From Candidatus Gastranaerophilaceae bacterium (GTDB lineage Bacteria > Cyanobacteriota > Vampirovibrionia > Gastranaerophilales > Gastranaerophilaceae): a stretch of 64,000 nucleotides of DNA. Where the stretch lies: assembly GCA_045538535.1 (NCBI GenBank), contig JAZSRN010000053.1:15315-79314 (forward strand), read 5' to 3'. This document shows, one piece after another, positions 3,933 to 62,275 of the stretch. The translations under genes were made by a program, and so were the position numbers. Positions within the stretch are counted from its first letter, which is position 1, and every line of letters begins with the position of its first letter. The notes beneath the pieces were generated by a model. It had not been told where the DNA came from, did no database searches, and saw only the letters and a program-made list of their open reading frames with translations.

Positions 3933-4646
3933 ATGGCAAATATTCAAAAACGTATTCTTATTGTTGATGATGATAATGAAATTAGGGATTTATTAGAGTT
4001 CGATATCGCACAAAGCGGCTATTTTGTTGATACTGCAAAGGACGGTTTAGAAGGCTTAAATAAAGCCCTTAACAATACTTATGACTTGATTTTATTAGAT
4101 GTCATGATGCCCAAAATGAACGGTTTTGATGTTGCTAAAAATATTAGACAAGCAAAACTGGCAATTCCCATATTGATGTTAACGGCAAAAGGAACAATTG
4201 ATGATAAAACCGAAGGTTTCGACTCCGGAGTTGATGATTATTTGGTAAAACCCTTCGATATTCAAGAAGTTCTGTTGCGAATAAAAGTATTATTAAGAAG
4301 AAATCAGATTGAAGATAAAAATTCACTTTCCGATGAAGTCTTGCAAGCTGGAGATATACAAATTTTTCCTGAAAGTTTAGAAACTGTGGTGGTAAACAAA
4401 CGAACAAAACTTACCCCAACAGAATTTGAAATTTTATATTGCTTACTACAGCATTTTAACCAACCTGTAACTTTGGCAACACTACTGGATGAAGTTTGGG
4501 GATATGATAGCAACGAAGATGTCCGCATGCTTCGTGTTCACGTCGGAGGCCTTCGTAATAAAATTGAACCCGATCCGAAAAATCCAAAATATTTGCATAC
4601 AGTTACAAATGTTGGTTATAAATTAACACCATTTAGCGGAGAATAG
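3933..4646 (+). CDS. OmpR-family response regulator
   Basis: Receiver domain (ILIVDDD...LILLDVMMPKMNG...LTAKG) plus a winged-helix trans_reg_C tail (LTPTEFEIL...VHVGGLRNKIE). Confidence 0.9.
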   Translation: MANIQKRILIVDDDNEIRDLLEFDIAQSGYFVDTAKDGLEGLNKALNNTYDLILLDVMMPKMNGFDVAKNIRQAKLAIPILMLTAKGTIDDKTEGFDSGVDDYLVKPFDIQEVLLRIKVLLRRNQIEDKNSLSDEVLQAGDIQIFPESLETVVVNKRTKLTPTEFEILYCLLQHFNQPVTLATLLDEVWGYDSNEDVRMLRVHVGGLRNKIEPDPKNPKYLHTVTNVGYKLTPFSGE

Positions 4647-7743: not shown

Positions 7744-8412
7744 ATGGAAAACGATAAAATCCAACTTTATATTGTAGAAGACTACATGTTAACAAGGGCA
7801 ACATACAAGCATTTCTTAAGTAAAAAACAAGACATTGAACTTCTCGGAGACTTCGAAAACGCAGAAAACTGTATTGATGCAATGCAAGAAAAAGAAGCCG
7901 ATGTAATTTTGATGGACCTAGGACTTCCAAAAATGAACGGACTGGAAGCAACTAAAATCTTAAAAGAGCGTTATCCAGCCGCAAAAGTTATTATATTAAC
8001 CTCACACGAACAAGAAGAAGAAATTTTAGCATCATTAGCAACCGGTGCCAACGCATACGTTTTGAAAGATATTGATTTCGGCGTTTTATATAACGTCATT
8101 CAATTAGTAAACAACGGGGCAATATGGATTGATCCAAAAATCGCACAAGTTGCACTTTCCGCCTTCCCTAAACCGGTTTCGACAAATTTCAACAACCTTT
8201 ATGACAAAAAAGTTTTAGATACAAATCTTACCAAACGAGAAATTGAAGTTCTGCGTTTAATTGTACAAGGAAAATCAAACACTGAAATCGCGGACGAAAT
8301 CCTTATTAGTCCAAATACAGCAAAAGCCCACGTTTGCAGCATTTTGCAAAAATTATCGGTAACCGATAGAGTTCAAGCTGCGGTTAAAGCTGTTAAACAA
8401 AATTTATTATAA
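7744..8412 (+). CDS. NarL/LuxR-family response regulator
   Basis: Receiver domain (LYIVEDY...ILMDLGLPKMNG) plus a LuxR-type HTH (LTKREIEVLRLIVQGKSNTEIADEILISPNTAKAHV). Confidence 0.9.
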   Translation: MENDKIQLYIVEDYMLTRATYKHFLSKKQDIELLGDFENAENCIDAMQEKEADVILMDLGLPKMNGLEATKILKERYPAAKVIILTSHEQEEEILASLATGANAYVLKDIDFGVLYNVIQLVNNGAIWIDPKIAQVALSAFPKPVSTNFNNLYDKKVLDTNLTKREIEVLRLIVQGKSNTEIADEILISPNTAKAHVCSILQKLSVTDRVQAAVKAVKQNLL

Positions 8413-8438
8413 CGTCACGTTCAATAAAAGGGATAGAA

Positions 8439-10070
8439 ATGAAGACAATTATAGTTTATGCAACAATCGCAGTAATATGCGCAACCTTCACAATATGTAA
8501 TTCAATACCGATAGATACAGTCAGCAGATTTTTAATTTCAGTCTGCATACTTGTATTGACAGTATTAATACAACAATGGATTAGAATAAATACTCTTTCA
8601 TCAAGACTTGAATACAAAAAAAACTTTATAGAAACATTTATAAAAAATTGTCCTGATATCGTTGATATAAAAGATGAAAACTTTAAATATTTAGTTTGTA
8701 ACAGTGCTTTTTGCACCGCTTTTGGTATTGCTCAACCTAAAGATGTTGAAGGCAGAGATGATTTTTCTATAATGAATAACGAAGCTGCACAAATAATTCG
8801 TAATCACGACGAAATGGTTGTACGATATGGCGCAGTTGAAAAATACAATGTAAAAATCAAACTAAATGATACCGGTTATAAAATATATGAAATTATTTCG
8901 GCACCTATGAGACAAAAAGATGGTATTGTAGGTATCGTAACTATTTCAAGAGATATGACTATTAGAGAAAATCTAAGAAAACAATATATCGAAAATTTAT
9001 ATCAAATGAATGCTATACTGGAAAATCTACCAGTAATTGCATACCTTAAAGACAGAAACGGGAACTACATTAGAGGCAATGACAAGCTTGCAAAACTTTT
9101 CAATTGTCCTGAAAGCGAAATAATAGGCAGACCTACAAAAGATTTATACAGAGAACATGGAATAGACTCCGTAGAAGAAATCGACGAAAAAATATTCCAA
9201 GGTAAAAAAGGTGCGAATTTTGATATTAAAATTAAAATATCAGAAGGTAATGACGAATGGTTCAGAGTTTATAAAGCACCAATTTTTGACTCTTCGGATG
9301 AAGTTTCTGGAATAACGGTCTTTTTAACCAACATAACAGCCGAAAAAGACTTGGAAAAACAACGCGAAACATTTATCGCGACACTAAGTCACGATTTAAA
9401 AACACCTACAATCGCTCAAATTCGTTCTCTCGAGCTTTTACTTCGAGAAGACTTTGGCTCTTTAAATGAAGAACAACGAGACATGCTTAATTTGACACTT
9501 GATTCTTGCAGATATATGTACGAAATGGTAACAACCGTTCTTTCCTCATATAAATACGAAAGTGGTGAAGTTAATCTAAACTTGAAAGATACAAACATCC
9601 AAGAGCTTACGCAAGAATGTTGCAACGAAATAAAACATTTACTAAAAGAAAAAAATCTAACAATTAGAACAAATACAGAAAACTTATCAAACAACATTTT
9701 AATTGTCGATAAAGTGCAAATCAAAAGAGTCATAACCAACTTTTTATCTAACGCACTTTCATACGCTTACGACAACTCAGAAATTGTAATCACTATGGAA
9801 AATGACCGTAAAAACAATTTTATATTTAAACTAAAAAGTAAAAGCCCATACATCGAGCCAGAACTAATGAAAACATTGTTCAAAAAATATACAACACACG
9901 CTTCTAAATTCAATAAAGTGGGTGATGGTTTAGGTTTATATTTAGCAAAACAAATCGTAACTCTTCACGGTGGAAAAGTCCTTGCTGAAAGTTGTAAAAA
10001 TGAAGAAAATATCTTTGGTTTTATCCTTAAAGCAACAAGTAATGCTCAATTAATAGTCAAAGAAAACTAA
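8439..10070 (+). CDS. Sensor histidine kinase with PAS-like domains
   Basis: Two N-terminal TM segments, two PAS-like segments, H-box LSHDLKTPTIAQ and G-box GDGLGLYLAKQIV. Confidence 0.85.
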   Translation: MKTIIVYATIAVICATFTICNSIPIDTVSRFLISVCILVLTVLIQQWIRINTLSSRLEYKKNFIETFIKNCPDIVDIKDENFKYLVCNSAFCTAFGIAQPKDVEGRDDFSIMNNEAAQIIRNHDEMVVRYGAVEKYNVKIKLNDTGYKIYEIISAPMRQKDGIVGIVTISRDMTIRENLRKQYIENLYQMNAILENLPVIAYLKDRNGNYIRGNDKLAKLFNCPESEIIGRPTKDLYREHGIDSVEEIDEKIFQGKKGANFDIKIKISEGNDEWFRVYKAPIFDSSDEVSGITVFLTNITAEKDLEKQRETFIATLSHDLKTPTIAQIRSLELLLREDFGSLNEEQRDMLNLTLDSCRYMYEMVTTVLSSYKYESGEVNLNLKDTNIQELTQECCNEIKHLLKEKNLTIRTNTENLSNNILIVDKVQIKRVITNFLSNALSYAYDNSEIVITMENDRKNNFIFKLKSKSPYIEPELMKTLFKKYTTHASKFNKVGDGLGLYLAKQIVTLHGGKVLAESCKNEENIFGFILKATSNAQLIVKEN

Positions 10071-11506: not shown

Positions 11507-11554
11507 CTAACCTTATATATTTATAAAGTATTTTCACTTTTAAAAATTGCCCTA
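11507..11554 (-). promoter_or_regulatory. Conserved upstream box, copy 1 of 3 (gene strand TAGGGCAATTTTTAAAAG..ACTTTATAAA..AAGGTTAG)
   Basis: Hand alignment with 38008-38057 and 39002-39061. The TAGG(G)CA to TATA spacing is 22 nt in all three copies. Confidence 0.5.
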
Positions 11555-12766: not shown

Positions 12767-13417
12767 CTAAAATCCAAATGGATAATCGTCCGGAACCTTC
12801 CAACCGTTCGCTTGAATTAAAGCCGCACAACCATGGCGAAACTCAACATCTTGACGACATCCATGATCCGCTTTTTTTATTTTATCTGCACCTAACCCCT
12901 CATAATAAGTCGCAAATTTATATCTATTACCATGAGCAACCATTCTAAAAGTAAAACGTTCAGTTCCATCCTTTGCCATTGCATAATGCTTATTTTCGTT
13001 TAGCAATAGATGGGATTTTGGATAGTAATAAAAATGAATAGAATCTACACCTGTGAAATGATTAAACATTACAAACCCTGAACCATCTGACAAACGAACA
13101 ACTATTCTCTTATTATCAGAGCTAACATATGCATCTTGAACATTAAGTTTGCTTTTTAGATATTTGTTAAACCACTCTAGACACTCCGAACCATTAGCAT
13201 TAGATGAAAAAGTATCCCAATTTTGTACCGGTTCACCATGCTCGTATTCAGCAGCAATTACAGCTTGACTCATTGTTGAGTAGAATTTTTTCAGCTTAGA
13301 TTCTACAACCATTTTTCTATGATTACTCATTACCGTTGGAAGAGTTAACGCTGCAACAACCCCAACAATCCCCAATGTTATCAAAACCTCTGCTAATGTA
13401 AAAGCTAATTTTCGCAT
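12767..13417 (-). CDS. Prepilin-type N-terminal cleavage/methylation domain protein (type IV pilin / pseudopilin-like)
   Basis: MRKLA|FTLAEVLITLGIVGVVAALTLP class III signal. C-terminal C-x9-C-x6-NGWK motif. I prefer the ATG at 13417 (RBS AAGAGGA) over the TTG at 13432. Confidence 0.8.
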   Translation of the reverse strand: MRKLAFTLAEVLITLGIVGVVAALTLPTVMSNHRKMVVESKLKKFYSTMSQAVIAAEYEHGEPVQNWDTFSSNANGSECLEWFNKYLKSKLNVQDAYVSSDNKRIVVRLSDGSGFVMFNHFTGVDSIHFYYYPKSHLLLNENKHYAMAKDGTERFTFRMVAHGNRYKFATYYEGLGADKIKKADHGCRQDVEFRHGCAALIQANGWKVPDDYPFGF

Positions 13418-13550
13418 ATAATCCTCTTTCAAAAACTACAACATAGTAATAAAATTTCTTGTTTACAATACTTATTATAATTGATTTATATACGGTTTAC
13501 AACTATCGGATAGTTTAAAATTTACAAATATATACATTACAATTAACTGC

Positions 13551-27710: not shown

Positions 27711-27952
27711 CTATTTTACCTTTTTCATATTTATTAGTCGCGTACTATTATTCTATTAAAAATTGGTAATATATTTTTTTGCCATATTTTTTACAAAAAT
27801 TAATATTTTCGCAAATTCGTGACAAAATATTTCTTTACGTATATAATTATATAAAATTACTCATGGCTTGTAAAGTTAGCATCATAAAAATACATCGCTT
27901 GATGTAGAAGTAAAAAATATATACACCACAGAGCGGATATAAGGAGATTATA

Positions 27953-34220: not shown

Positions 34221-35393
34221 ATGAAAAAATTTTTATTGGCTGGTTTTTATTTTGATGGCTATCACGGTTCTATGATGCACATATGCGAAATTGCCAAATA
34301 TCTGAAATCCATCGGTTTTGATGTAACAATTGCTGCAGTTTCAATAACAGATGAAATTAAAAATTATGTTAAAGATATTGGGATAAACCTTGTGCAAGTC
34401 CTTGATATTCCCCAAAAGTCGTTTTTTGATTATGGTTTGTGCTACCACTTTCCAATTTTATCATTTTTATTACATCAAGGAGTAGTAATTGACAAATTAA
34501 TTATTGGTAGTCTGTCATCGATTTTGGAATTAGAAATGCCAAATCTAATATACAAGTACGGAATTCCTATCCACGTACATAATGCGTCATTAAAGGAAAA
34601 ATTCAAAAAAGAACTGTTAATTTATCCGTCAAACATATATGTAATGCCTAATCTAGTTCCTATTGAATATTTGAATTTTAAAAAACAAACGTCAAATGAT
34701 CAAATAAAAAATATCGCAATTGTGTCAAATCACATCCCAAAAGAGATACGAGAAGCAACTTCGTTACTTGCATTGCAGAAAATAAATATTGATATTTATG
34801 GTAAAGCCGATAATTACATCGCAATTACACCTCAAATTTTATCTCAATATGATGTAATAATTTCTATAGGGAAAACAGTTCAATACGCGTTAGCACTTGG
34901 TATCCCCGTTTATAATTATGACCATTTTGGTGGAATGGGCTATATCAATACAGAAAATATTAAACGAGAAGAATACTATAATTTTTCTGGACGCTCAAGC
35001 TTTAGAAAAATAGAAGCAGATGATATTGTTTGTGAATTATTGGCATATTATAAACAAACACTCGCCGAAAAAGATAAACTAAAAGAATATGCAGCCCGCA
35101 CATACGCCATAAACACTAATATGGAAGGGCTTATTTCATATTTAGATAAATTACCTCCTAGTAACATCGAAGAGTTTTTACAAAATGAAAAATTATATAT
35201 TAAATGTTGTAATTTTATCATTTATCAATGTTCAAATTTATTCAATGAAAATAAGCACTTAAAATACGTGATAAATAATCTAAAACTACATTTACTTATA
35301 AAATACAGAATCAAATTATTTTTCTATAAACACATATTAAAAAACACATTCAAAAGGGAAAAATACGAAAAATTACTAGGTATATGGAGGTAA
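34221..35393 (+). CDS. Hypothetical protein, possible glycosyltransferase
   Basis: Operon context only. No clear motif. Confidence 0.35.
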   Translation: MKKFLLAGFYFDGYHGSMMHICEIAKYLKSIGFDVTIAAVSITDEIKNYVKDIGINLVQVLDIPQKSFFDYGLCYHFPILSFLLHQGVVIDKLIIGSLSSILELEMPNLIYKYGIPIHVHNASLKEKFKKELLIYPSNIYVMPNLVPIEYLNFKKQTSNDQIKNIAIVSNHIPKEIREATSLLALQKINIDIYGKADNYIAITPQILSQYDVIISIGKTVQYALALGIPVYNYDHFGGMGYINTENIKREEYYNFSGRSSFRKIEADDIVCELLAYYKQTLAEKDKLKEYAARTYAINTNMEGLISYLDKLPPSNIEEFLQNEKLYIKCCNFIIYQCSNLFNENKHLKYVINNLKLHLLIKYRIKLFFYKHILKNTFKREKYEKLLGIWR

Positions 35394-35395
35394 AT

Positions 35396-35614
35396 ATGAC
35401 AGATAAAATAAGATTTCTTAACCTCTCCAAGCGTGAAAAACTGGTCATTGAATACCTTGTGCAAGGATTCACAAATGGAGAAATTGGACGAAAACTAGGA
35501 TGTTCAGAAAGTTGCATCAAAATACACGTTTCAAACATCCTTTCAAAAATGGACGTTAGAAATCGAGCACAATTAGGGTTTGTAATCGGAAAAGATTATA
35601 CCTCTAAAAATTAA
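35396..35614 (+). CDS. Stand-alone LuxR-type HTH protein
   Basis: LSKREKLVIEYLVQGFTNGEIGRKLGCSESCIKIHVSNILSKM. RBS GGAGG before the ATG at 35396. Confidence 0.7.
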   Translation: MTDKIRFLNLSKREKLVIEYLVQGFTNGEIGRKLGCSESCIKIHVSNILSKMDVRNRAQLGFVIGKDYTSKN

Positions 35615-36447: not shown

Positions 36448-36605
36448 GATAAGCTATTCCCCTTTTTCTCTAATTATAACATTTTACTTTAAAGGAAAAA
36501 AAAATTCCCACTATGCTAAATTTTGTAACAATTATATTTTATTTTCTAAAGTATAACGTTATTTATTCCGTAAATATTGGTATAGAGAAAATAAGGAGTA
36601 AAATT

Positions 36606-36773
36606 TTGCACGACGAAATTTTTAGAACAGCTTTATGTGAAGCGAAGTCAGAATCATATTCTGCATTAAAAAATGAAGTAATATCAATGGAAAAAGCCAT
36701 TGAAAGATTTTTGGCCAATGTATTTGAATGCGCAGGCAGCTTTACAGAACGAGATTTTCAATCTTCAAAATAA
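36606..36773 (+). CDS. Possible small protein (55 aa, TTG start)
   Basis: AAGGAG lies 7 nt upstream of the TTG at 36606. The longer 36513 start has no RBS. Confidence 0.35.
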   Translation: MHDEIFRTALCEAKSESYSALKNEVISMEKAIERFLANVFECAGSFTERDFQSSK

Positions 36774-36778
36774 AACAT

Positions 36779-37978
36779 TTAACCTTTGAGATTTAGTCCT
36801 AATCGATTTTTCAAGTCAGCCGCAACCGTACCGAACGATTGCTCTAAGGGTAAAGTGTCCCTACCGTTCTTAGCAAGTGTATCAATATGCTCTTTTGCTA
36901 TGCCCATAAATTCAACTTTATCTTTATCAGAATTTTTAAGTTGTTTAATTATGGCTTCGCCTTGTGCTTGTCTGTGTTTTTCAAGTTCGGATTTGCCAAC
37001 TATGGCTTTCATACCTTTTCCGGCAAAATGTCCAACAACCATACCGCAAGCCATACCGACCAAACCGCCGACAATAGCACCGACTGCGTTACCAATACCT
37101 GGAACAACTGTGCCAAGTAACGCACCGAGTTTAGCACCGGCAATACCTCCGACTTTTGCACCAGCCCAGAAACCAGCCGTTTCAGCTGCCACTACAGCCG
37201 TAGATTTCAATAACTGTTTATTACCTTTACTTGTTCCTAATGTTTTATATGTTTCTATAATTTCCGGAGCTTCACACGCAAGAGAAATACCGGCAAATAA
37301 GGCATTACCTTTTACCCCGCTCGCAATTTTACGGAATATCGGTGATTTAACCGCCCAACTTTTTGTTTTACCGCTCAAATACGTTACACCAGTATATTTT
37401 TTAGCACCCGCAATTATTTTACCGGTTGTTGTTGTCGGTTTTAAATTACCATTAATTTTTGCATTATGAACATTTAATTTTGCTTCTGCAACTTTTTGTT
37501 CAATTTCCGCCAAAGCCTTTGCTTGATCTACACCTTTTAAACCTTTAGCATTATTAACTGCGGTTCGTACATCATCAAAGTAAGCCATTTTGCGAGAATT
37601 TCTTATAAACTTTGCTCTTTCCGCAGCTGAAGCACCAGCAGAAAGCGGTTGAGGCATCGAATATTTTGCACCAAGACCATTTATTCTGTTCATTCTATCA
37701 AGATTCATGGCCGTTTGGAAAATATTATTGCCCTTCATCGATTGGTTAAGTGCATTTTGAGCCACACCATTAGCTTTCAGAGCTTGCCAAGCACTTTGAT
37801 AATTACCTCGATTTTGCCATAACCAAGTCCCTCCGTTCCAAGCTGCCGGTACTGCTGAAAACGCAGCCATAAAACCGAAACCGTCTAATGGCCCGATTTG
37901 TTTCATTGCTGAAACACCCGCAACTGAATATGAGAGTCTTGCCAACTCGTTATTTACCTTAACGAAATTGTAGTTCAT
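36779..37978 (-). CDS. Glycine-zipper membrane protein, unknown function (399 aa)
   Basis: aa 261-322 read AVVAAETAGFWAGAKVGGIAGAKLGALLGTVVPGIGNAVGAIVGGLVGMACGMVVGHFAGKG. No signal peptide. Confidence 0.6.
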   Translation of the reverse strand: MNYNFVKVNNELARLSYSVAGVSAMKQIGPLDGFGFMAAFSAVPAAWNGGTWLWQNRGNYQSAWQALKANGVAQNALNQSMKGNNIFQTAMNLDRMNRINGLGAKYSMPQPLSAGASAAERAKFIRNSRKMAYFDDVRTAVNNAKGLKGVDQAKALAEIEQKVAEAKLNVHNAKINGNLKPTTTTGKIIAGAKKYTGVTYLSGKTKSWAVKSPIFRKIASGVKGNALFAGISLACEAPEIIETYKTLGTSKGNKQLLKSTAVVAAETAGFWAGAKVGGIAGAKLGALLGTVVPGIGNAVGAIVGGLVGMACGMVVGHFAGKGMKAIVGKSELEKHRQAQGEAIIKQLKNSDKDKVEFMGIAKEHIDTLAKNGRDTLPLEQSFGTVAADLKNRLGLNLKG

Positions 37979-38007
37979 CTTTTTCCCTTAAATTTTAATT
38001 CCCCGTA

Positions 38008-38057
38008 GTTATATAAAGTTTTTTTGTTTAAAATAATTGCCTAATTATTAAGAAACA
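38008..38057 (-). promoter_or_regulatory. Conserved upstream box, copy 2 of 3
   Basis: Gene strand reads TTCTTAATAATTAGGCAATTATTTTAAAC..AAAAAACTTTATATA. It begins directly after the upstream gene's terminator. Confidence 0.5.
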
Positions 38058-38085
38058 TTAAAAGAGCAGAAAACATTTTCTGCTC
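38058..38085 (-). terminator. Rho-independent terminator of 38131-38976
   Basis: Minus strand reads GAGCAGAAAA-tg-TTTTCTGCTC followed by TTTT. Confidence 0.8.
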
Positions 38086-38130
38086 ATAAATAAGGGGTAT
38101 TGTTATATATATTAAGGGGAGGATAAATTA

Positions 38131-38976
38131 TTAACTCATATAATTTAATTTTTGTGGCTGATTCATCATATAATTCATACTTGAAGGATTCATCATATTA
38201 TAACCCATTGAATTCATACCAGTAGCATTCATCATAAAATCATCATTCATTGTGCCCATCGCAGACATCATATAAGCATTTTGCAATTGCTGAATTTGTT
38301 GAGGAGTCATAGTCGACACTTGCGAATTTGCACTATATGATCCAAATGCTGGTGCATTACTTGATTGAGATTGATTATACGCCATTTTTGCAGCTTCCTC
38401 AGCTTCCATTTTCTTTTCGGTATATGTTTTGCCGACAACTGCACTTGCTAACATTTCACCGGCAATCCATCCTAATAAACCACCTACAATAGGAATAGGA
38501 CAAATAGCTTGGCCTATAGCTGCACAAGCCGCTCCTGAAGCCAACCTTGCCGTTGCCTTACCGGTTTCTAAAAGACCAGAACCAATACCTTCTTCAGTAG
38601 TTGCTTTAAATATATTCGGAAGTTCAAATGCAATCATTAAAGCAGAACCGATAAGTGGTAAACGTTTAACTAGTTCATTTCCGGCACCTTTAAATGAACT
38701 CCAGAAACCCTTTCCGGCCTTCCAAGCATTTTTCATATCTTTTGGAAGCGACATTGCAGAATCTTTCATGCCTTTCCATACATTTGTACCTTTAGTGGCA
38801 TTTTCAGCAGCTTTAAAACCATCTTTAATTTGAGTTCCAAAGTTGGTAAATCTACTTTTTCCGGCAGCTTTGAATACAGAACCACTATTTTTTATAGATT
38901 GTTCAACAGCGGTTTGGTATTTTACATCAAATAGGAGTTTTCCAACATTACTCGCAATTCTACCTATAGAAACCAT
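38131..38976 (-). CDS. Glycine/small-residue zipper membrane protein with Met/Asn/Gln-rich C-terminal tail (281 aa)
   Basis: LASGAACAAIGQAICPIPIVGGLLGWIAGEMLASAVVG. The tail reads YMMSAMGTMNDDFMMNATGMNSMGYNMMNPSSMNYMMNQ. Confidence 0.6.
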   Translation of the reverse strand: MVSIGRIASNVGKLLFDVKYQTAVEQSIKNSGSVFKAAGKSRFTNFGTQIKDGFKAAENATKGTNVWKGMKDSAMSLPKDMKNAWKAGKGFWSSFKGAGNELVKRLPLIGSALMIAFELPNIFKATTEEGIGSGLLETGKATARLASGAACAAIGQAICPIPIVGGLLGWIAGEMLASAVVGKTYTEKKMEAEEAAKMAYNQSQSSNAPAFGSYSANSQVSTMTPQQIQQLQNAYMMSAMGTMNDDFMMNATGMNSMGYNMMNPSSMNYMMNQPQKLNYMS

Positions 38977-39001
38977 TTTCTACCTACCTTAAACTTTATA
39001 A

Positions 39002-39061
39002 CTAACCTTACCTATATAAAGTTTTTTAGAGTTAAAAAATTGCCTATAATATTAAGAAATG
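39002..39061 (-). promoter_or_regulatory. Conserved upstream box, copy 3 of 3
   Basis: Gene strand reads TTCTTAATATTATAGGCAATTTTTTAAC..AAAAAACTTTATATAGGTAAGGTTAG. Confidence 0.5.
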
Positions 39062-39114
39062 TTAACTTACTTAATCAACTTTACAGAAACAACCAAAAGT
39101 TGTATAATTAACCT

Positions 39115-39306
39115 ATGTATTGCCAAGATGGAAAAATCTATATTGAAACAACCGATTTGTGTATAACTTGTGACAATTACGCACGAGGTGTAGCATGTCC
39201 TTTACTCACAGCATTAGGTGAAGGAGCAGTTTTTATGGAAGATTGTTTAACGGTTGAAGATTGTGGGTTTTACAAAGAGTTTAAACGGAATTTACACATA
39301 GTTTAG
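39115..39306 (+). CDS. Possible small Cys-rich protein (63 aa)
   Basis: ORF only, with no clear RBS. Lies 11 nt upstream of the dehydrogenase gene. Confidence 0.3.
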   Translation: MYCQDGKIYIETTDLCITCDNYARGVACPLLTALGEGAVFMEDCLTVEDCGFYKEFKRNLHIV

Positions 39307-53774: not shown

Positions 53775-54470
53775 TTAATAATCCATCTTCCATCCATTTT
53801 GAGCAAGGTAATTATAACAACCTTGACCTTCTAATTGCCCTTCTTTGCAATCTTCAGGATTACCAGAATCAACTAATATGCCATCATTTCTTAAATCAAA
53901 TAGAAACACATCATACCCATATTTATTTGGCGCCTTAAAACCATTTACATCCATTTCAATAACCCCTAAAGAATTTCCAACGCCATTACCTATCATCATA
54001 CTCATCATAGCATTATCATTTAACACAAGCATAGTTGCCCCACGCATATTATTAGTGCCAGTATTTGATAAATTAGTAAATTTATAGTCGTTAGGTGCAA
54101 TTGCATAATCTATAATATTAAAATATTTTTTCAAATCATTTTTAAAGAAATTTTGACACAATTGACTAGCTTGTTCTAAATTGGAATTTGAACAGTCAAC
54201 ACTATCCGTAGAAAGTTGAACAAATGGTTCCGTATCTTCCAAGCTATCAACACCTCCAGCATCTGCACGCATTTTTTGGAATCCTTGTTCAAGAGTTGAT
54301 ACTGTTTTTCTTAATTGAGCAACCCAAACTTGCTTTTTGTGACTAGCAATCAAATTTGGCATTGTTAATGCTGCAACAATACCAATAATACCTAACGTAA
54401 TTAACACTTCTGCTAACGTAAACCCAAGCCGAATATTAACATTAGTACTCTTTTTGCAAAATAATTCCAT
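53775..54470 (-). CDS. Prepilin-type N-terminal cleavage/methylation domain protein
   Basis: RLG|FTLAEVLITLGIIGIVAALTMP. C-terminal C-x9-C-x6-NGWK motif. RBS AAAGGAA. Confidence 0.8.
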   Translation of the reverse strand: MELFCKKSTNVNIRLGFTLAEVLITLGIIGIVAALTMPNLIASHKKQVWVAQLRKTVSTLEQGFQKMRADAGGVDSLEDTEPFVQLSTDSVDCSNSNLEQASQLCQNFFKNDLKKYFNIIDYAIAPNDYKFTNLSNTGTNNMRGATMLVLNDNAMMSMMIGNGVGNSLGVIEMDVNGFKAPNKYGYDVFLFDLRNDGILVDSGNPEDCKEGQLEGQGCYNYLAQNGWKMDY

Positions 54471-56195: not shown

Positions 56196-56867
56196 ATGAG
56201 AAAGATATTTTCTAACAAAACACAACGCCAAGCGTTCACACTTGCAGAAGTTTTAATAACATTGGGTATTATCGGCATTGTGTCTGCAATTACAATGCCA
56301 ACATTGATTAGCAACCATAAACAACAGACTTATATGACAACCTTGCATAAAGTCTACAACGAAACACATCAAGCATTAACCCAATTAAAAACTGACAAAA
56401 ACGTGGAAACTTTGACTGAAGCTGGCTTAAATTCTAATGCAGCATTAGCTGACTGGGCAAAAAAATATTTCAAAGTTCAAACTGATTGCGGTACAAGTGC
56501 TACACCGTGTTTTGCTCCTTCATACAAGCATTTAAAAGGTGCAACCGTCAGCGACATATCATTTACAAGCGGTGCTAGTTGTTTCCAACTTCCAAGCGGT
56601 GCATCCATAAGACCATATTACAAGAGTGAATACGAAAAGAAAATTAATCTTTTTGTCGACACAAACGGTGCAAAAGGCCCAAATATTTTGGGTAGAGATG
56701 CATATTTATTAGGAATATACAATAACGGAACAATTGATGACTATGATGGAGGTTCTGTACCATTGACTCCGGCAAGACGAACTGCGCTATATAACAATAA
56801 ATGCAATTCCACTACTGGCAGTGTTTGGGGTTGTTTTGGCAACGTATTAAACAACGGCTGGAAATAG
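56196..56867 (+). CDS. Prepilin-type N-terminal cleavage/methylation domain protein
   Basis: RQA|FTLAEVLITLGIIGIVSAITMP. The C-terminus is C-x9-C-x6-NGWK. Confidence 0.8.
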   Translation: MRKIFSNKTQRQAFTLAEVLITLGIIGIVSAITMPTLISNHKQQTYMTTLHKVYNETHQALTQLKTDKNVETLTEAGLNSNAALADWAKKYFKVQTDCGTSATPCFAPSYKHLKGATVSDISFTSGASCFQLPSGASIRPYYKSEYEKKINLFVDTNGAKGPNILGRDAYLLGIYNNGTIDDYDGGSVPLTPARRTALYNNKCNSTTGSVWGCFGNVLNNGWK

Positions 56868-56868
56868 A

Positions 56869-57525
56869 TTATACATTACAAATTTTTGAATATTCACAAG
56901 AGGCACATTTATCAGATTTTTTACAATCAAAAGATGTGTCTTTTGTTATTTCAGCACAAACGTTTTCTATTATATTTTTATATTGCGCTTTCAAATTGTC
57001 ATCAAATAAAACTTCCACATTACGATTATTTTTCAAATCAATATAAACAAACTGTATCTTACGAGTATCTCCTTTAGAGCGCAAAAACTCATCTAATATT
57101 AACAAATACGAAATCGTTTGAAAATCATACTGTGGATTTTTTGGAACTGAACCGGTCTTGTAGTCCAAAATATAATATCCGGACTCATCTTTCATTAAGG
57201 CATCAAGTCTTCCGCTCAACCAATACCCGCTAATATTTGCAGACAAATTATATTCTGAATTTACATAACACTTTTTAAAATAACTATTTTCACAAAGTTT
57301 TTGGAAAATTTCGGTTTCTTCAAAGTTTAAAGCCTCACCTAATTTCGTAATATCTTGTCCGCTCAAGTAATAATGTGCAAGTGCATGGATTTTTTTACCT
57401 TTTACAAAATAAGATGAAGGCATAGGGATATTGATTTTTTCAAGATACTTAAGCCTATATTTATAAGGGCATTCACTATATGTTTTTAGCATATTCGGGT
57501 AAAATATAATCGAATTTTTAAGCAT
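56869..57525 (-). CDS. PD-(D/E)XK nuclease with Cas4/AddB-type four-cysteine Fe-S cluster motif
   Basis: One N-terminal Cys (YSECPYKY), RLDAL...ILDYKTG catalytic core, QxxxY (FQTISY) and C-terminal CKKSDKCASC. ATG 57525 has RBS GGAGG and overlaps the helicase stop by 8 nt. Confidence 0.75.
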   Translation of the reverse strand: MLKNSIIFYPNMLKTYSECPYKYRLKYLEKINIPMPSSYFVKGKKIHALAHYYLSGQDITKLGEALNFEETEIFQKLCENSYFKKCYVNSEYNLSANISGYWLSGRLDALMKDESGYYILDYKTGSVPKNPQYDFQTISYLLILDEFLRSKGDTRKIQFVYIDLKNNRNVEVLFDDNLKAQYKNIIENVCAEITKDTSFDCKKSDKCASCEYSKICNV

Positions 57526-60500
57526 TAATGACCTCCACATCCCCAATGATTTGTTCGAAAATCATACTCGGCTTTTCAATTTTCATTTTACCATAGCTTT
57601 TAACATTAGTCGCGGCAGTAATATATAAATACTTACGCGCGCGGGTAATTGCAACATATAATAATCGCAAATGTTCAGATATCAATTCTTTTTTTAACTC
57701 AAAAACCGTTTTTTTCTTATATTTTGGATTTAGTTGTTTTAATTGTTCCGGCAAAGAACTGCCTTTCAATTCAAACCCATTAAAATCAATGTTCAAATTT
57801 TTCTCCAACAATTCGGGAATAAAAACATAATCAAACTCATCACCTTTTGACTTATGCATTGTCATAATTTGAATTTTACCCACCAAAACATCATTAGCTG
57901 CTTCATCTTCTTCTGAGAAAAACCTAAAGCCACTCAAACTTTTACGTTTTGATAATTCATACAAACGTTCTAAAACATAGTTAAAACCGGAATTTGTCAC
58001 AGACAAACGTTTTATGAGGGTACCTATCAAGTAAATATTAGATTTTTCAATCTCACCTGAAAAATAATAAAGTCCTATTTTCATCGCCAATTCATCAATA
58101 GGCAAATGAGCAAACGAAATCCAATAATTTACATCCCAATAAAACTGTTCAAGATATATATTTCCGATAACATCACAATTCAATTGCACAAAAGGATTTT
58201 CATATTTCCGAATATCCGAAGCCATACGACCATTATACAATCCAAAATCAGACAAAACCTCATACTGTGTTGCTAAATTGTCATTATCGAACGGTCGTTG
58301 AATGATTTTAAGCATTGCAAATATTACTTTAAATATTGATTTTTGCTCTAAAGATTCACTTCTAGTAATTGCTTTTAAACCACTATTATTTATAAAATTT
58401 TGCCACTCAATAACTTGATAATTCGTTCTTAACAAAATCCCAAACGTTGCTTTCGGATTTTTTTTAAGTGCTTTCTTAATTTCTCTAAGCACATAATTCC
58501 GCTCTTCCGAAATTGTTTTGAAAACCCTTGCTTGTATAGCATTTTCACTAACCGGATTTTTACCTTCTACCGGTTTCATCATCATATTATAAAAAGAATT
58601 TTTGTAACTCGGCCGTTTTTCAGCCCATTCAACCAAAGCATTTGCAAGTTTCCAAACACCTTCACAACAACGCTGAGAACAATCCATACTTACGGGATTG
58701 CTCTCTTTTATAAAATTACGAAATCCCTCGACATCGGCATTTGAAAATGTTGTAGTAATAGCTTGATTTATATCCCCACAACGTATAAGATTCTGGTGTT
58801 TTCCACTCAAAAGATTTATTAACCGTTGCTGAATTTCGGAAGAATCTTGCGCTTCATCTTCTATAATATAATGACAAACATTTTGATAATACGCCAATAT
58901 ATCCGGATTTTCTTCCAATAATTTTACAGACGAAATCAAAATATCATCATAATCTATTAAATTGTTTTCTGCCAATTTTTTTTGATAAGCAAGGAAAAAT
59001 TCCTTAAATTTTAATATCTTTTTGTCCGTAATTCTTGCATCAAAACTAACATTAGAAAATTTACAACACGAAAGGCAACTCATAAACTCTTCGGTTTCTT
59101 TTTGTTTTAAACCTAATTCCGCAGAAACCTCTTTTACAATTCGAGTTTTTTGAGTATCATCACAAATTTCAAAATCTGATGATAAGTTTAATCTTTCAAA
59201 ATTCGAATTTTCTTTCAAAATCCTCAATGCTAAACCATGAATAGTGCTAATGTTAGGTAATTGATTTGACTCCGGTCGAATATTTTTAATTCTCTCCCTA
59301 AAATTACGCGCTGCAGATTCCATATATGTCATAACGAAAATATTTTCAGGGTTTACACCTTGATTAAGGATTTTTAATATTAAAGCCAATAAAATAGTTG
59401 TTTTACCGGCACCCGGAACCGCGGATATTGCCATTTTACCAGCCTTATATTCTAATACGGGTTTTTGGTCATCCCGAGGAATTATAGGCTTTACACTTTT
59501 GATTTCATTGTTTTTTTCTGTATTCTCTTTTACACAGATATGGTTTTCTATTCCGCCGAAATTCTCAACACCACTACTATCAAACAAACTAGAAAAAGCG
59601 TATACTTTTTCTTCAGACAATAAAGTTAACTTTCGTAGAATTTTTGCAGTTTTTTCTGTCGAAAGATTTATATTATCTTCAATCGTAAATTCATTTTTTT
59701 CCCAACCTTTTTGAAAAACCCAAGCATTATATAATGGCCCCGTATCCGATTTTATCCACTCAGAATTTGAAACATCGAGCCAGAAGGAATATTTCACTTT
59801 TACTTGATTATCTATTATTTTTTGCGGAGTCCCTACAACCAAATCGTTCTTAAATATTTCAACTTTAGAAACGGGATTTTCAGCAATAATTGAATTTTCG
59901 ATTTGTGTTAAAATTTCTTCTTTTCTATTGATGAAATCAGCACCTAAAACATTCTCAAAATCTTCAATCTGCTTTACAAAAAAATTAAACTTTACAAGTT
60001 CCTCTAATTTCACCAAAGAAAAATCGGCCAATTGGTTAAAAATATCCACAACTTGCTCGGAAAGATTTCGGTTATCCCTTGAACCTTCGTCCAAAACTTT
60101 GAGTAACAAATTGTATTTAGCCAAATATTCATTCGGCAACACCTCACAAACATCTAGTTTTTTGGTTTTAGTAAAATTTACTAATATTTCACGACAATAT
60201 TTCAACGGAATACCTAAAAAACCTGTCAATATACTTCGGATATCAAATTCACTCAAATTGTTTTTCAATTCAGAATTCAATTTTAGAATATTTATAACAG
60301 ATAACACTAAACGATTTTGAATTAACTTTTCATTACCGGATAAATATTTTGTTTTTACGAATTTACGCAATTTTTCACGCAATGAAAACTTTAACATATC
60401 ATCAATTACCGGCGTAACAATAGAAATTTCACAAGGTTTAACATTTCTATCTAAAAGAGAATTAATCTCTTCAATAACAAAATCTACCATCGATGCCCTT

Positions 60501-61438
60501 TTTGACAACGAAAAACTTTTAAAATTTTCTAAAATATTTTGTTCGTTATTAAGAACATTTAAAAACAACTTCTCTGCATCTTGCAAACCACAAGACTCCA
60601 AAACTTCAGATGTAGAATTGGTAAAAACATTTTCAAACTCCCAAACCGACATCCTATCTGCACTCAAATAACCACAACGACTCCCACCTTTTTTATCGTA
60701 TACAATAAAATAATCCGTAAGTTGAGGCGCAAGATATTTTATAAACTCAAAACAAACCGGTGTTATTTCATCTCCATCATCTAAAATTAAATATTTAATT
60801 TTTTCGAAACAATTGGTATTCTTGTACAAATAATTAAAAACCAAAATTTGTCTCAAATAATCCATCTGCCGATAAAAAAGAGTTTTCGACAAAAATTTTT
60901 TCAATGTCAATTTAATATCGGCCGCAAACCCCTCCTTCAGAATTTTTGATCTTTCCTCAACATCTTTGTCTGAAAGATTATTTTGCACAATAAGTGAATA
61001 CCTTCTAAATATTTGATGCAAAAGGGATTTTTTAGAATTATACCCTTTAAATTCAACTTTTTTGAGAATGTCACGAAGCAAAAATTGCGAAACCTCAAGC
61101 CCCGCCAAATTTGGCAAAACCGTTGGATTATTAAACGGATTAGACTGCTCTATACTTGCCCAATTATCAGTTATCGCATTATAAACCAAAGAATTAAACG
61201 AGTGCACTTGCAATTTTTCAAACGAGTTTATTGTTAATAAAGGTAATATTTTTTCAATAAATTTATCTTTTAAACTTGAATTTAAAACAAGAACCAAAAT
61301 TTCAGAAGCATCAATGCCACTGTTCAGCAATTGCGCATACTTTTGAATTAAAAAATCCGTTTTATTACTCGACAAATCCGCTTCTACTAACAACTTTACA
61401 TCCCTTTTTAATTTTAATTTTAACATGAAAAAACACAA
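57518..61438 (-). CDS. UvrD/AddA-type helicase fused to an N-terminal degenerate AddB-like helicase-like half (1306 aa)
   Basis: The C-terminal half carries Walker A AVPGAGKTT (about aa 675), IIEDEAQDS, MTMHKSKGDEFDYVFIP and VAITRARKYLYI. The N-terminal 650 aa has degenerate equivalents (DLSSNKT, ILDDGDE). No nuclease domain is present. Confidence 0.8.
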   Translation of the reverse strand: MCFFMLKLKLKRDVKLLVEADLSSNKTDFLIQKYAQLLNSGIDASEILVLVLNSSLKDKFIEKILPLLTINSFEKLQVHSFNSLVYNAITDNWASIEQSNPFNNPTVLPNLAGLEVSQFLLRDILKKVEFKGYNSKKSLLHQIFRRYSLIVQNNLSDKDVEERSKILKEGFAADIKLTLKKFLSKTLFYRQMDYLRQILVFNYLYKNTNCFEKIKYLILDDGDEITPVCFEFIKYLAPQLTDYFIVYDKKGGSRCGYLSADRMSVWEFENVFTNSTSEVLESCGLQDAEKLFLNVLNNEQNILENFKSFSLSKRASMVDFVIEEINSLLDRNVKPCEISIVTPVIDDMLKFSLREKLRKFVKTKYLSGNEKLIQNRLVLSVINILKLNSELKNNLSEFDIRSILTGFLGIPLKYCREILVNFTKTKKLDVCEVLPNEYLAKYNLLLKVLDEGSRDNRNLSEQVVDIFNQLADFSLVKLEELVKFNFFVKQIEDFENVLGADFINRKEEILTQIENSIIAENPVSKVEIFKNDLVVGTPQKIIDNQVKVKYSFWLDVSNSEWIKSDTGPLYNAWVFQKGWEKNEFTIEDNINLSTEKTAKILRKLTLLSEEKVYAFSSLFDSSGVENFGGIENHICVKENTEKNNEIKSVKPIIPRDDQKPVLEYKAGKMAISAVPGAGKTTILLALILKILNQGVNPENIFVMTYMESAARNFRERIKNIRPESNQLPNISTIHGLALRILKENSNFERLNLSSDFEICDDTQKTRIVKEVSAELGLKQKETEEFMSCLSCCKFSNVSFDARITDKKILKFKEFFLAYQKKLAENNLIDYDDILISSVKLLEENPDILAYYQNVCHYIIEDEAQDSSEIQQRLINLLSGKHQNLIRCGDINQAITTTFSNADVEGFRNFIKESNPVSMDCSQRCCEGVWKLANALVEWAEKRPSYKNSFYNMMMKPVEGKNPVSENAIQARVFKTISEERNYVLREIKKALKKNPKATFGILLRTNYQVIEWQNFINNSGLKAITRSESLEQKSIFKVIFAMLKIIQRPFDNDNLATQYEVLSDFGLYNGRMASDIRKYENPFVQLNCDVIGNIYLEQFYWDVNYWISFAHLPIDELAMKIGLYYFSGEIEKSNIYLIGTLIKRLSVTNSGFNYVLERLYELSKRKSLSGFRFFSEEDEAANDVLVGKIQIMTMHKSKGDEFDYVFIPELLEKNLNIDFNGFELKGSSLPEQLKQLNPKYKKKTVFELKKELISEHLRLLYVAITRARKYLYITAATNVKSYGKMKIEKPSMIFEQIIGDVEVINA

Positions 61439-62033: not shown

Positions 62034-62275
62034 GTATACTCCTTTTCTCTTTCAACATGTATTTTCTCTATATTTATATAAAAACGACAAGATATAAAAA
62101 AGTGCTAAATTTTATATAAAGAATATATGGCTTTGCGGAAAACCTAGGCAAAACAAGACTTTACAAGTTTACATTTCTTAATATATTTTGTATTTTTCTC
62201 AAATAAGTTAAAACGACTTTACAGAACGATTATTTTAATATACTATATAAAAAAAAGTATCCGATGGAGAAATAC

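Follow-up and report, generated by a model that had tools for sequence, protein, structure and literature searches.

Paralogous small-residue hairpin proteins and a composite promoter class at a conserved locus of Candidatus Gastranaerophilales

The stretch of DNA analysed here, 64,000 nucleotides of contig JAZSRN010000053.1 from a Candidatus Gastranaerophilaceae bacterium (hereafter the window; 32.7% GC), carries two adjacent genes, F2 and F1, which are transcribed in this order from the minus strand and share a conserved element upstream of each start codon. F1 and F2 are distant paralogs that belong to a large, entirely unannotated protein family, and the element that precedes them is a lineage-specific composite promoter class. 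We tentatively favour a model in which the two proteins are core components of the cell envelope rather than a toxin.

Two paralogous genes at a conserved locus

Both open reading frames (ORFs) of the initial annotation proved to be real, each with many full-length homologs (Table 1). AlphaFold2 models of F1 and F2 are all-helical, with mean predicted local distance difference test (pLDDT) scores of 59.6 and 70.6, respectively, and scores of 80-89 in the N-terminal helices of F2. Kyte-Doolittle hydropathy peaks only at a hairpin of small residues in each protein, and the N-termini, inspected by eye, lack a charged n-region followed by a hydrophobic core, in agreement with the earlier statement that neither protein has a signal peptide. 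Long small-residue repeats of the GxxxG type had been ascribed to both proteins. The claim holds for F1, whose hairpin contains 11 GxxxG motifs against 4.1 in shuffled sequences (p<0.001; none of 2000 shuffles reached 11), with the corrected position of the peptide quoted as evidence being 37031-37174 instead of 37013-37198; it does not hold for F2 (2 against 0.9, not significant), which is better described as a hairpin of small residues turned at a Pro than as a clear zipper. The region N-terminal to a conserved E-x-P motif is strongly basic across both families, with a mean net charge of +20.4 in F1 (n=14) and +13.9 in F2 (n=27), and the C-terminal parts are mildly acidic. In most F2 members and in the longer F1 members, the protein ends in a low-complexity tail rich in Q, N, M and Y with conserved terminal motifs; the F1 protein of the window is without such a tail.

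The initial annotation described the two proteins as not obviously homologous, a view superseded by comparison of their family profiles, which aligned with 97.5% probability (hhalign, E 5.7e-12) over a region spanning the E-x-P motif, the hairpin and GKSxxEK. The common core has four parts: a hydrophobic helix that ends in an invariant E-x-P-(N/E)-I (CEAPEII in F1, FELPNIF in F2), an amphipathic helix, the small-residue hairpin with its Pro/Gly turn (VPGIG in F1, CPIPIVGG in F2) and a GK(S/T)xxEK motif. In about 12 species the second gene of the pair fits F2 better than F1 by score, and one locus carries four tandem copies, from which we conclude that the F1/F2 pair originated by tandem duplication.

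Homologs fall into 19 clusters for F1 and 33 for F2, all from metagenomes or metagenome-assembled genomes (MAGs) and all without names. A peptide-pattern scan for F2 in one genome per species gave 124 matches confirmed by tblastn, and the 80 loci kept from it carry titles that are nearly all Candidatus Gastranaerophilales or Melainabacteria, the closed genome MEL.A1 (CP017245.1) included; an exhaustive hidden Markov model search with the F2 alignment returned 548 clusters (50% identity), of which 201 reach E<=1e-30. Within these searches the family is almost confined to Candidatus Gastranaerophilales and occurs in most of the sampled genomes of that order. As initially reported, no recognised family could be assigned: scans of F1, F2 and three further proteins of the window described below (P3, s55 and s63) against Pfam, NCBIfam, PHROGs and PADLOC gave only hairpin-level or sub-threshold matches, and a sequence search of the PDB with both family profiles gave nothing credible. 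Neither the viral contigs of IMG/VR nor the plasmids of PLSDB contain relatives of F1 or F2, which speaks against a mobile-element origin. Three loci of the Gastranaerophilales type (L031, L066 and L077) sit in MAGs labelled Muribaculaceae or Bacteroidaceae, and these are probably binning errors.

Gene order was compared across the 87 fetched loci by hmmsearch and phmmer. The large majority share the arrangement isocitrate/isopropylmalate dehydrogenase-family gene (IsoDH, -), s63 (-, in some loci), F2 (+), F1 (+), s55 (-) and PRK-type kinase gene (+), with the strand of F2 and F1 taken as positive; the exceptions are mostly contig ends, and outside the block from IsoDH to the kinase the flanks vary by lineage. 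Since the genes keep to a single syntenic block and have no plasmid or viral relatives, the locus shows the pattern of a lineage-defining core function and not that of an accessory toxin cassette. Paralogy, distribution, synteny and motif architecture are shown directly, as are the phasing and specificity of the promoter class described below.

Table 1. Positions in the window of the F1/F2 genes, their control elements and related features
Feature	Position	Strand	Description
F1	36779..37978	-	399 aa, all-helical; basic N-domain (+21), E236-A-P238 motif, glycine-zipper hairpin at about residues 263-325 with VPGIG turn, GKSELEK motif, C-terminal helical tail
F1 5' leader	37979..38006	-	proximal Shine-Dalgarno (SD)-like ACGGGGAA at 37999-38006; ribosome-binding site (RBS) AAGGGAAAAAG at 37979-37989
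F1 module B	38010..38040	-	GCAATTA-N16-CTTTATATA; position weight matrix (PWM) score 32.5 bits
F1 module A	38044..38061	-	HLR1-like TTAATGTT-TC-TTAATAAT; 11/16 against strict HLR1; 3 nt to GCAATT
F2 intrinsic terminator	38054..38085	-	9-bp GC-containing stem at 38064-38085, loop of 4, T-run to 38054
F2	38131..38976	-	281 aa, all-helical; distant paralog of F1; basic helical N-terminal domain (+12), ELPNIF motif, small-residue hairpin at about residues 141-182 with CPIPIVGG turn, GKTYTEKK motif, Q/N/M-rich tail with conserved TMTPQQ and NDDFMMNATGMN motifs
F2 5' leader	38980..39012	-	proximal SD-like GGTAAGGTTAG at 39002-39012; RBS TAAGGTAGGTAG at 38980-38991
F2 module B	39013..39043	-	GCAATTT-N16-CTTTATATA; PWM score 30.1 bits
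F2 module A	39048..39065	-	HLR1-like TTAACATT-TC-TTAATATT; 13/16 against strict HLR1; 4 nt to GCAATT
P3	10067-11503, with promoter to 11552	-	478 aa, no known family
P3 module B	11520-11550	-	PWM score 30.6 bits; core GCAATTT-N16-CTTTATA
s55	36606..36773	+	acidic and helical, 55 aa; convergent with F1 (stop codons 5 nt apart)
s63	39115..39306	+	63-aa Cys-rich protein; directly 5' of IsoDH
OmpR-family response regulator	3933..4646	+	RpaA/RpaB clade; candidate binder of module A
Histidine kinase	4651-6342	+	next gene after the OmpR-family regulator

A composite promoter class upstream of both genes

F2 and F1 are separate transcription units, as had been proposed from the terminator between them, and each stands under the shared, non-generic upstream element. 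Of 74 distinct homologous pairs, 53 have a terminator-like hairpin in the space between the two genes, compared with 3.8% of shuffled controls, and in the window the T-tail of the F2 terminator overlaps module A of the F1 promoter. The upstream box reported for the two genes is also borne out: their upstream regions can be aligned over about 55 nt, and a 34-nt degenerate pattern, TAGGCAATTWTTTWAMWCWAAAAAACTTTATATA, which was derived from these two sequences themselves, has no other match in the window (0 expected; 100 shuffles). An alignment of 153 distinct regions upstream of F1/F2-family genes from about 80 species resolves the box into four modules. The first, module A, consists of two direct repeats in tandem, T T (A/T) A C A (T/A)(T/A) - N N - (T/G) T (A/T) A C A (A/T)(A/T), and module B reads GCAATTT-N16-(C/T)TTTATATA, its core being written GCAATTT-N16-CTTTATATA. 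Two purine-rich SD-like elements follow on the 3' side, one directly after TTTATATA and the other the RBS, and they are family-specific (AAGGTAGGTTA in F2, ACGGGGAAA in F1). The gap from module A to module B takes quantised values of 3-5, 13-16 or 22-25 nt, nearly nothing lying between them, and a 10-bp period of this kind is the hallmark of a protein at module A that has to face a partner at module B on the same side of the DNA.

A 33-nt PWM of module B, built from the 153 homologous upstream regions, has exactly three matches in the window, at F2 (39013), F1 (38010) and P3 (11520, minus strand). In about 1 Mb of homologous loci it has 158 matches, of which 154 precede F1/F2 genes and four precede other small or basic membrane proteins. 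The initial annotation had named a generic promoter consensus as the alternative explanation of the box. This is ruled out by the rarity of module B and by the canonical TTTACA-N17-TATAAT or TATTAT promoters of the s63/IsoDH operon and a tRNA gene. The opposite extreme, an operator specific to the pair, is ruled out as well, given that module B also precedes P3 homologs and varied genes on metagenome contigs; the scan thus found the box to be rare and non-generic, yet not private to F1 and F2. By rough extrapolation, some ten to a few tens of such promoters may occur per genome.

P3 has an N-proximal transmembrane segment, a net charge of +26 and, at the C-terminal end, a hairpin of small residues. 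Its homologs form 12 clusters, all without names, and those at non-syntenic sites in other species (L088-L090) retain module B. As a third paralog of F1 and F2, P3 is unsupported (1.6-6% probability when the single sequence was aligned with the F1 and F2 profiles by hhalign). An exact-pattern scan of metagenome contigs found 25 low-GC sites of the module B type, and the genes behind them include those for an F-like protein (L103), a P3-like protein (L119), ABC1 atypical kinases (two), a protein with HEAT_PBS repeats, an S8-like protease, a GNAT acetyltransferase, transmembrane proteins with Lys-rich repeat tails and several small proteins without an assigned function. The kinases, the HEAT_PBS-repeat protein, the protease, the acetyltransferase and one of the Lys-rich-tail proteins, which is of low complexity, come from contigs L093, L143, L127, L128, L113 and L100. 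With such varied genes behind the promoter core, the regulon appears heterogeneous. Where an HLR1-like repeat could be recognised at these sites, its gap was again 3-4 or 13-16 nt.

Module A resembles a regulatory element of photosynthetic relatives. In cyanobacteria, HLR1, (G/T)TTACA(T/A)(T/A) repeated after N2, is the site of RpaB, and sites centred near -51 are activating (PMC6525291); RpaA occupies a tandem repeat that lies just upstream of the -35 element, as at the activated kaiBC promoter, and contacts sigma and the alpha subunit's C-terminal domain (alpha-CTD) in RNA polymerase (PMC12916501). Family-wide, module A has the same two 8-nt direct repeats with N2 spacing and likewise lies upstream of a core, and the cyanobacterial promoters offer a precedent for a head-to-tail regulator dimer in contact with sigma and alpha-CTD. 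With 14 or more of 16 positions required, 62 of the 153 upstream regions match strict HLR1, 15 of them perfectly, compared with 0.85% of shuffles. Unlike in strict HLR1, position 3 of the module A repeat is A or T about equally, and unlike the cyanobacterial HLR1 promoters, these belong to a non-photosynthetic host and have a core, GCAATTT-N16-CTTTATATA, without a described counterpart. On the assumption of a transcription start 6-8 nt after TTTATATA, the class with a gap of 3-4 nt would have the centre of module A at about -50, and the other two classes would have it 10 and 20 nt further upstream. To our knowledge, no helix-phased HLR1-type motif has been reported before from a non-photosynthetic relative of the cyanobacteria.

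The core itself was compared by eye with known sigma-factor consensus sequences. Sigma-54 (GG-N10-GC) and sigma-28 (TAAA-N15-GCCGATAA) fail to fit module B in sequence or spacing, and so do Synechocystis SigF (TAGGC at -32, GGTAA at -12) and Bacillus subtilis sigma-B, F, G and K; the 'TAGGC' of the window is not kept in other species. GCAATTT may be either the -35 element of an alternative sigma factor or the site of a second factor.

The candidate regulator of the window is an OmpR-family protein; among PDB entries it is closest to cyanobacterial RpaA, with 216 bits, the next entry reaching 156. At 7744-10070 lie the genes of a second two-component pair, in which a PAS histidine kinase accompanies a NarL-type regulator. 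Under relaxed scoring, HLR1-like repeats (15/16) also occur upstream of the PRK-type kinase gene (36512-36529, minus strand), an OmpH/Skp-like chaperone gene (27790-27807, plus strand) and an amino-acid-kinase gene (62168-62185, plus strand); the window total of such sites, 7 against 3.5±1.5 expected, is only weakly above chance.

Both SD-like elements downstream of module B are complementary to a canonical anti-SD sequence; for the 5' copy, the mean duplex energy is -6.2 kcal/mol in F2 and -6.0 kcal/mol in F1, against a background of 0.05±2.0, these values resting on an assumed canonical 16S 3' end. A precedent is STAB-SD, the 5' mRNA stabiliser of B. thuringiensis cry3A (PMC4113751), which likewise is SD-like, stands apart from the RBS close to the leader's 5' end and is complementary to the 16S 3' end; unlike that of cry3A, the F1/F2 leader is only about 32-37 nt long and its 5' end is assumed. 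By analogy, the 5' SD-like copy suggests long-lived and highly translated F1 and F2 mRNAs.

A proposed cytoplasm-facing membrane scaffold and the alternatives

Comparison with known membrane proteins places the F1 hairpin closest to those of bacterial dynamin-like GTPases. A 680-aa protein with Dynamin_N and GTPase domains, P0019, aligns with the F1 family at 97.6% probability (hhalign, E 3e-12), and its segment GALIGSVVPGIGTAVGAIVGG is near-identical to GALLGTVVPGIGNAVGAIVGG of F1 (18 of 21 residues); the PADLOC model LeoB matches F1 residues 275-354 at 27.2 bits, PDC-M09B also matches, and Pfam DUF3482 recurs below threshold on the same hairpin segment. GTPases of this kind (LeoB/Eleos-type, DUF3482 region; P0019) share with F1 a Gly/Ala-rich hairpin with a VPGIG turn, and in both groups helical domains that are taken as cytoplasmic flank the hairpin on both sides, those of the P0019-type proteins being soluble. 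Unlike them, F1 and F2 are without a GTPase domain (no match to PF00350 or PF01926), and only the F1/F2 family has the E-x-P motif, GKSxxEK, the basic N-domain and the Q/N/M tail. The Pfam glycine-zipper families fit less well: F1 stays below the gathering thresholds of Gly-zipper_Omp (PF13488, 18.8 bits, cut-off 25), Gly-zipper_OmpA (PF13436, 12.2 bits, cut-off 27) and Gly-zipper_YMGG (PF13441, 10.9 bits, cut-off 28.9), and F2 has no match. Gly-zipper_Omp occurs at E<=1 in 7 of 14 F1 members, the best value (E 0.0016, below the cut-off) being that of F1 in the window. Sub-threshold matches to C19orf12-like (PF20721) at E<=1 were found in 5 of 28 F2 and 3 of 14 F1 members (best E 0.00048), and in neither protein of the window. 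A possible functional parallel is Mic10 of MICOS, in whose transmembrane hairpin glycine motifs drive oligomerisation and membrane bending (PMC4431669). Mic10 and other glycine-motif hairpin shapers share the hairpin rich in small-xxx-small motifs, although F1 and F2 are 3-5 times larger, have big soluble domains and do not match the Mic10 Pfam family.

The basic flank of a membrane segment is, by the positive-inside rule, cytoplasmic. Applied to the basic N-domains of F1 and F2, the rule places these in the cytoplasm and, the membrane segment being a hairpin, the C-tails too, so that the two hairpins would be N-in/C-in anchors facing the cytoplasm. The likeness of the F1 hairpin to that of P0019 lends this orientation independent support.

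We infer topology, oligomerisation, abundance, regulator identity and cellular role from such comparisons, and the model that we tentatively prefer is that F1 and F2 form an abundant scaffold or shaping layer on the inner face of the membrane. The hairpin would serve as a re-entrant or two-span anchor, as in the bacterial dynamin-like GTPases, with the flanking domains on the cytoplasmic face of the inner membrane. The proteins may pack via their small-xxx-small faces into homo- or hetero-oligomers, much as the glycine motifs of Mic10 do, and conservation of the tandem pair suggests a hetero-oligomer; the oligomers would then coat or shape the inner membrane. Each gene would be transcribed as its own unit from the same type of composite promoter, where a regulator of the RpaA/RpaB family may bind module A as a dimer in head-to-tail arrangement and recruit RNA polymerase to module B, module A being in phase with the core at a distance of one, two or three helical turns upstream. 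The 5' SD-like copy might stabilise the mRNA in the manner of STAB-SD and so raise expression. Each part by itself is of a kind already known, namely an anchor made of a glycine-zipper hairpin, a response-regulator-activated promoter and a 5' SD-like leader; the protein family is undescribed.

Several points weigh against this model. (i) The structural models. AlphaFold2 confidence is only moderate, and Foldseek found no structural neighbour at E<=0.001 in the PDB (both models) or in BFVD (F2 model). (ii) The hairpin. Its similarity between F1 and P0019 could be convergent low complexity, and with conserved Lys residues in the first hairpin helix of F1 and no significant GxxxG periodicity in F2, insertion depth and topology are uncertain. 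The basic N-domain, moreover, could equally bind nucleic acid or polyphosphate. (iii) The promoter. The module A copies of the window are degenerate (13/16 for F2, 11/16 for F1), AT-rich repeats arise easily in a genome of 33% GC, module B matches none of the sigma-factor consensus sequences compared, and the start site, like the 16S 3' end, is assumed. (iv) The regulator. The OmpR-family protein, the candidate binder of module A, scores below the NCBIfam RpaB cut-off (197.5 against 330 bits).

Among the alternatives, the two proteins could be made only upon activation of an envelope or redox two-component system and protect the membrane under stress, in the manner of Psp/Lia or YmgE/GlsB. A response-regulator-type tandem repeat at an activating position would fit this, as would the weak Pfam matches to small glycine-zipper stress proteins (Transgly_assoc, Gly-zipper_YMGG) and the control of stress-responsive membrane proteins by RpaB in cyanobacteria (PMC6525291). 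We nevertheless regard stress protection as unlikely: nothing indicates inducibility; the strong core promoter, SD-like leader and wide conservation fit constitutive abundance equally well; and F1 and F2 are far larger than the known small glycine-zipper stress proteins and built otherwise.

A role of the basic N-domains in holding polyanions such as nucleoid DNA, RNA, ribosomes or polyphosphate at the membrane, with the hairpin as no more than an anchor, is improbable. The net charges of about +20 (F1) and +14 (F2) lie in Lys/Ala-rich helices, and the F1 profile weakly matches ribosomal protein bS20 and basic helical proteins of the TPPP type (E 0.0009-0.006); these matches, however, are compositional and fall short of any reliable threshold, Pfam scans found no nucleic-acid-binding domain, and basic amphipathic helices are equally expected on anionic lipid surfaces. 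Non-classical export, in which the conserved motif at the C-terminus (TMTPQQ...; NDDFMM..GMNxLN) would be a secretion signal after the low-complexity linker and the product a cell-surface or extracellular structure, would suit the strong-expression features and the lack of a signal peptide, but is very improbable in view of the tail-less F1 of the window, the absence of linked secretion-system genes in the 87 loci, and a basic N-domain and dynamin-type hairpin that indicate the cytoplasmic face.

Least probable is a membrane-permeabilising toxin, either a binary alpha-pore-forming toxin (alpha-PFT) such as YaxAB/XaxAB or AhlB/MakA or a bacteriocin of the colicin or Cdz type, released without a signal peptide and inserting its hydrophobic hairpin into target membranes. 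The resemblance is one of layout: the alpha-PFTs (YaxAB/XaxAB, AhlABC/SmhABC, MakA) are likewise all-helical paralogs encoded side by side that carry a hydrophobic hairpin and lack a classical signal peptide, and the F2 model, in which eight shorter or amphipathic helices flank a hydrophobic hairpin (helices 8-9), recalls the pore domains of colicins or Bcl-2. AhlB, SmhB and MakA are also the top PDB matches of the F1 model in Foldseek (E 0.035-0.4, best probability 0.51), yet TM-scores of 0.11-0.15 with a root-mean-square deviation of about 40 Å are not meaningful, so this modelled likeness is not significant and counts as non-evidence; the best E for F2 against the PDB is 1.9. Unlike in the alpha-PFTs (TM-scores of about 0.13), the locus is core and syntenic, not accessory, at one chromosomal site across the order with no counterpart in plasmids or viral contigs, and the N-domains are strongly basic. 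Flagellar export in the style of MakA is disfavoured because MEL.A1 (L043) has the locus without the genes for flagellar filament, hook-junction and L/P rings (PMC3787301). No colicin, bacteriocin or toxin family of Pfam matches above threshold. For a pore-forming colicin there is no colicin match in Pfam, no plasmid match and, in place of an immunity gene, the opposite-strand s55 without a hydrophobic segment; for Cdz and class II bacteriocins, which are below 100 aa and have a leader and an exporter, the proteins are too long (281-480 aa), no exporter is conserved in the 87 loci, and Bacteriocin_IIc and MccV match only one of 14 members (E 0.02-0.04). Neither s55 nor s63 has a hydrophobic segment, and therefore neither resembles a pore-toxin immunity protein. 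The pair had been put forward as a candidate membrane-active system with toxin-like parallels. This reading is only partly borne out: both proteins do have a membrane-embedded small-residue hairpin, and core synteny, the absence of mobile-element relatives, basic N-domains, the lack of an immunity-like neighbour and insignificant fold matches speak against a toxin, bacteriocin or contact-dependent system.

Gut Melainabacteria are still essentially without cultured representatives, and many of the genes particular to their lineage are uncharacterised; a search of the literature for Gastranaerophilales in culture or in images returned nothing useful. Against this background, F1 and F2, as a conserved and probably abundant envelope pair, are possible markers and an entry to the cell biology of the order. 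The greater value lies in a DNA motif, conserved across the order and helix-phased, that would link RpaA/RpaB-type regulators to target genes without photosynthesis. Gut Melainabacteria encode homologs of RpaA, RpaB and NblS "that may have another function" (PMC3787301), and the role of these proteins without photosynthesis (Di Rienzi et al. 2013) becomes directly testable, with a bearing on what the RpaA/RpaB circuit did before oxygenic photosynthesis evolved. A more far-reaching proposal, which we think distinctly unlikely as a whole, is that the promoter class is the regulon of the Melainabacteria RpaA/RpaB (and NblS) homologs, with F1 and F2 as its flagship targets and an order-specific glycine-zipper coat that shapes membranes, comparable to Mic10, reticulons and oleosins. 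In this scenario, the RpaB circuit would have governed membrane architecture first and been co-opted later for thylakoid and photosystem genes.

Neighbouring genes and minor features of the window

The small protein s55 is syntenic across the order, always between F1 and the PRK-type kinase gene, and is conserved far above F1 or F2 (consensus YHDEIFENAL..KEEsYkALKnEIssME.aIErFL..leCtSs.sERDFnv), with no family match in the Pfam, NCBIfam, PHROGs and PADLOC scans. With so few nucleotides between the stop codons, the s55 and F1 transcripts of the window probably overlap in antisense; synteny is what ties s55 to the pair. The other small protein, s63, has a weak match to DUF7930 and one to PHROG 38191 at E 5e-6. 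In the window, a separate canonical promoter (TTTACA-17-TATAAT at 39080-39108) serves its gene, and in related loci the ORF of its homolog overlaps that of IsoDH; we therefore assign s63 to IsoDH and not to F2.

Beyond the PRK-type kinase gene, and convergent with it, a stand-alone LuxR/GerE-type helix-turn-helix protein of 76 aa without a receiver domain is encoded at 35384-35614 (plus strand); other species do not have this gene in synteny. Elsewhere, the window encodes three prepilin-like proteins that bear methylation motifs at the N-terminus (12767-13432 and 53775-54470 on the minus strand, 56196-56867 on the plus strand), and one of them carries DUF6613, a domain also found near the F2-F1 locus in L005. 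At 56869-61438 (minus strand), a Cas4-like PD-(D/E)XK nuclease of 225 aa overlaps the end of a 1306-aa ORF, and the two may be a helicase-nuclease pair of the AddAB type.

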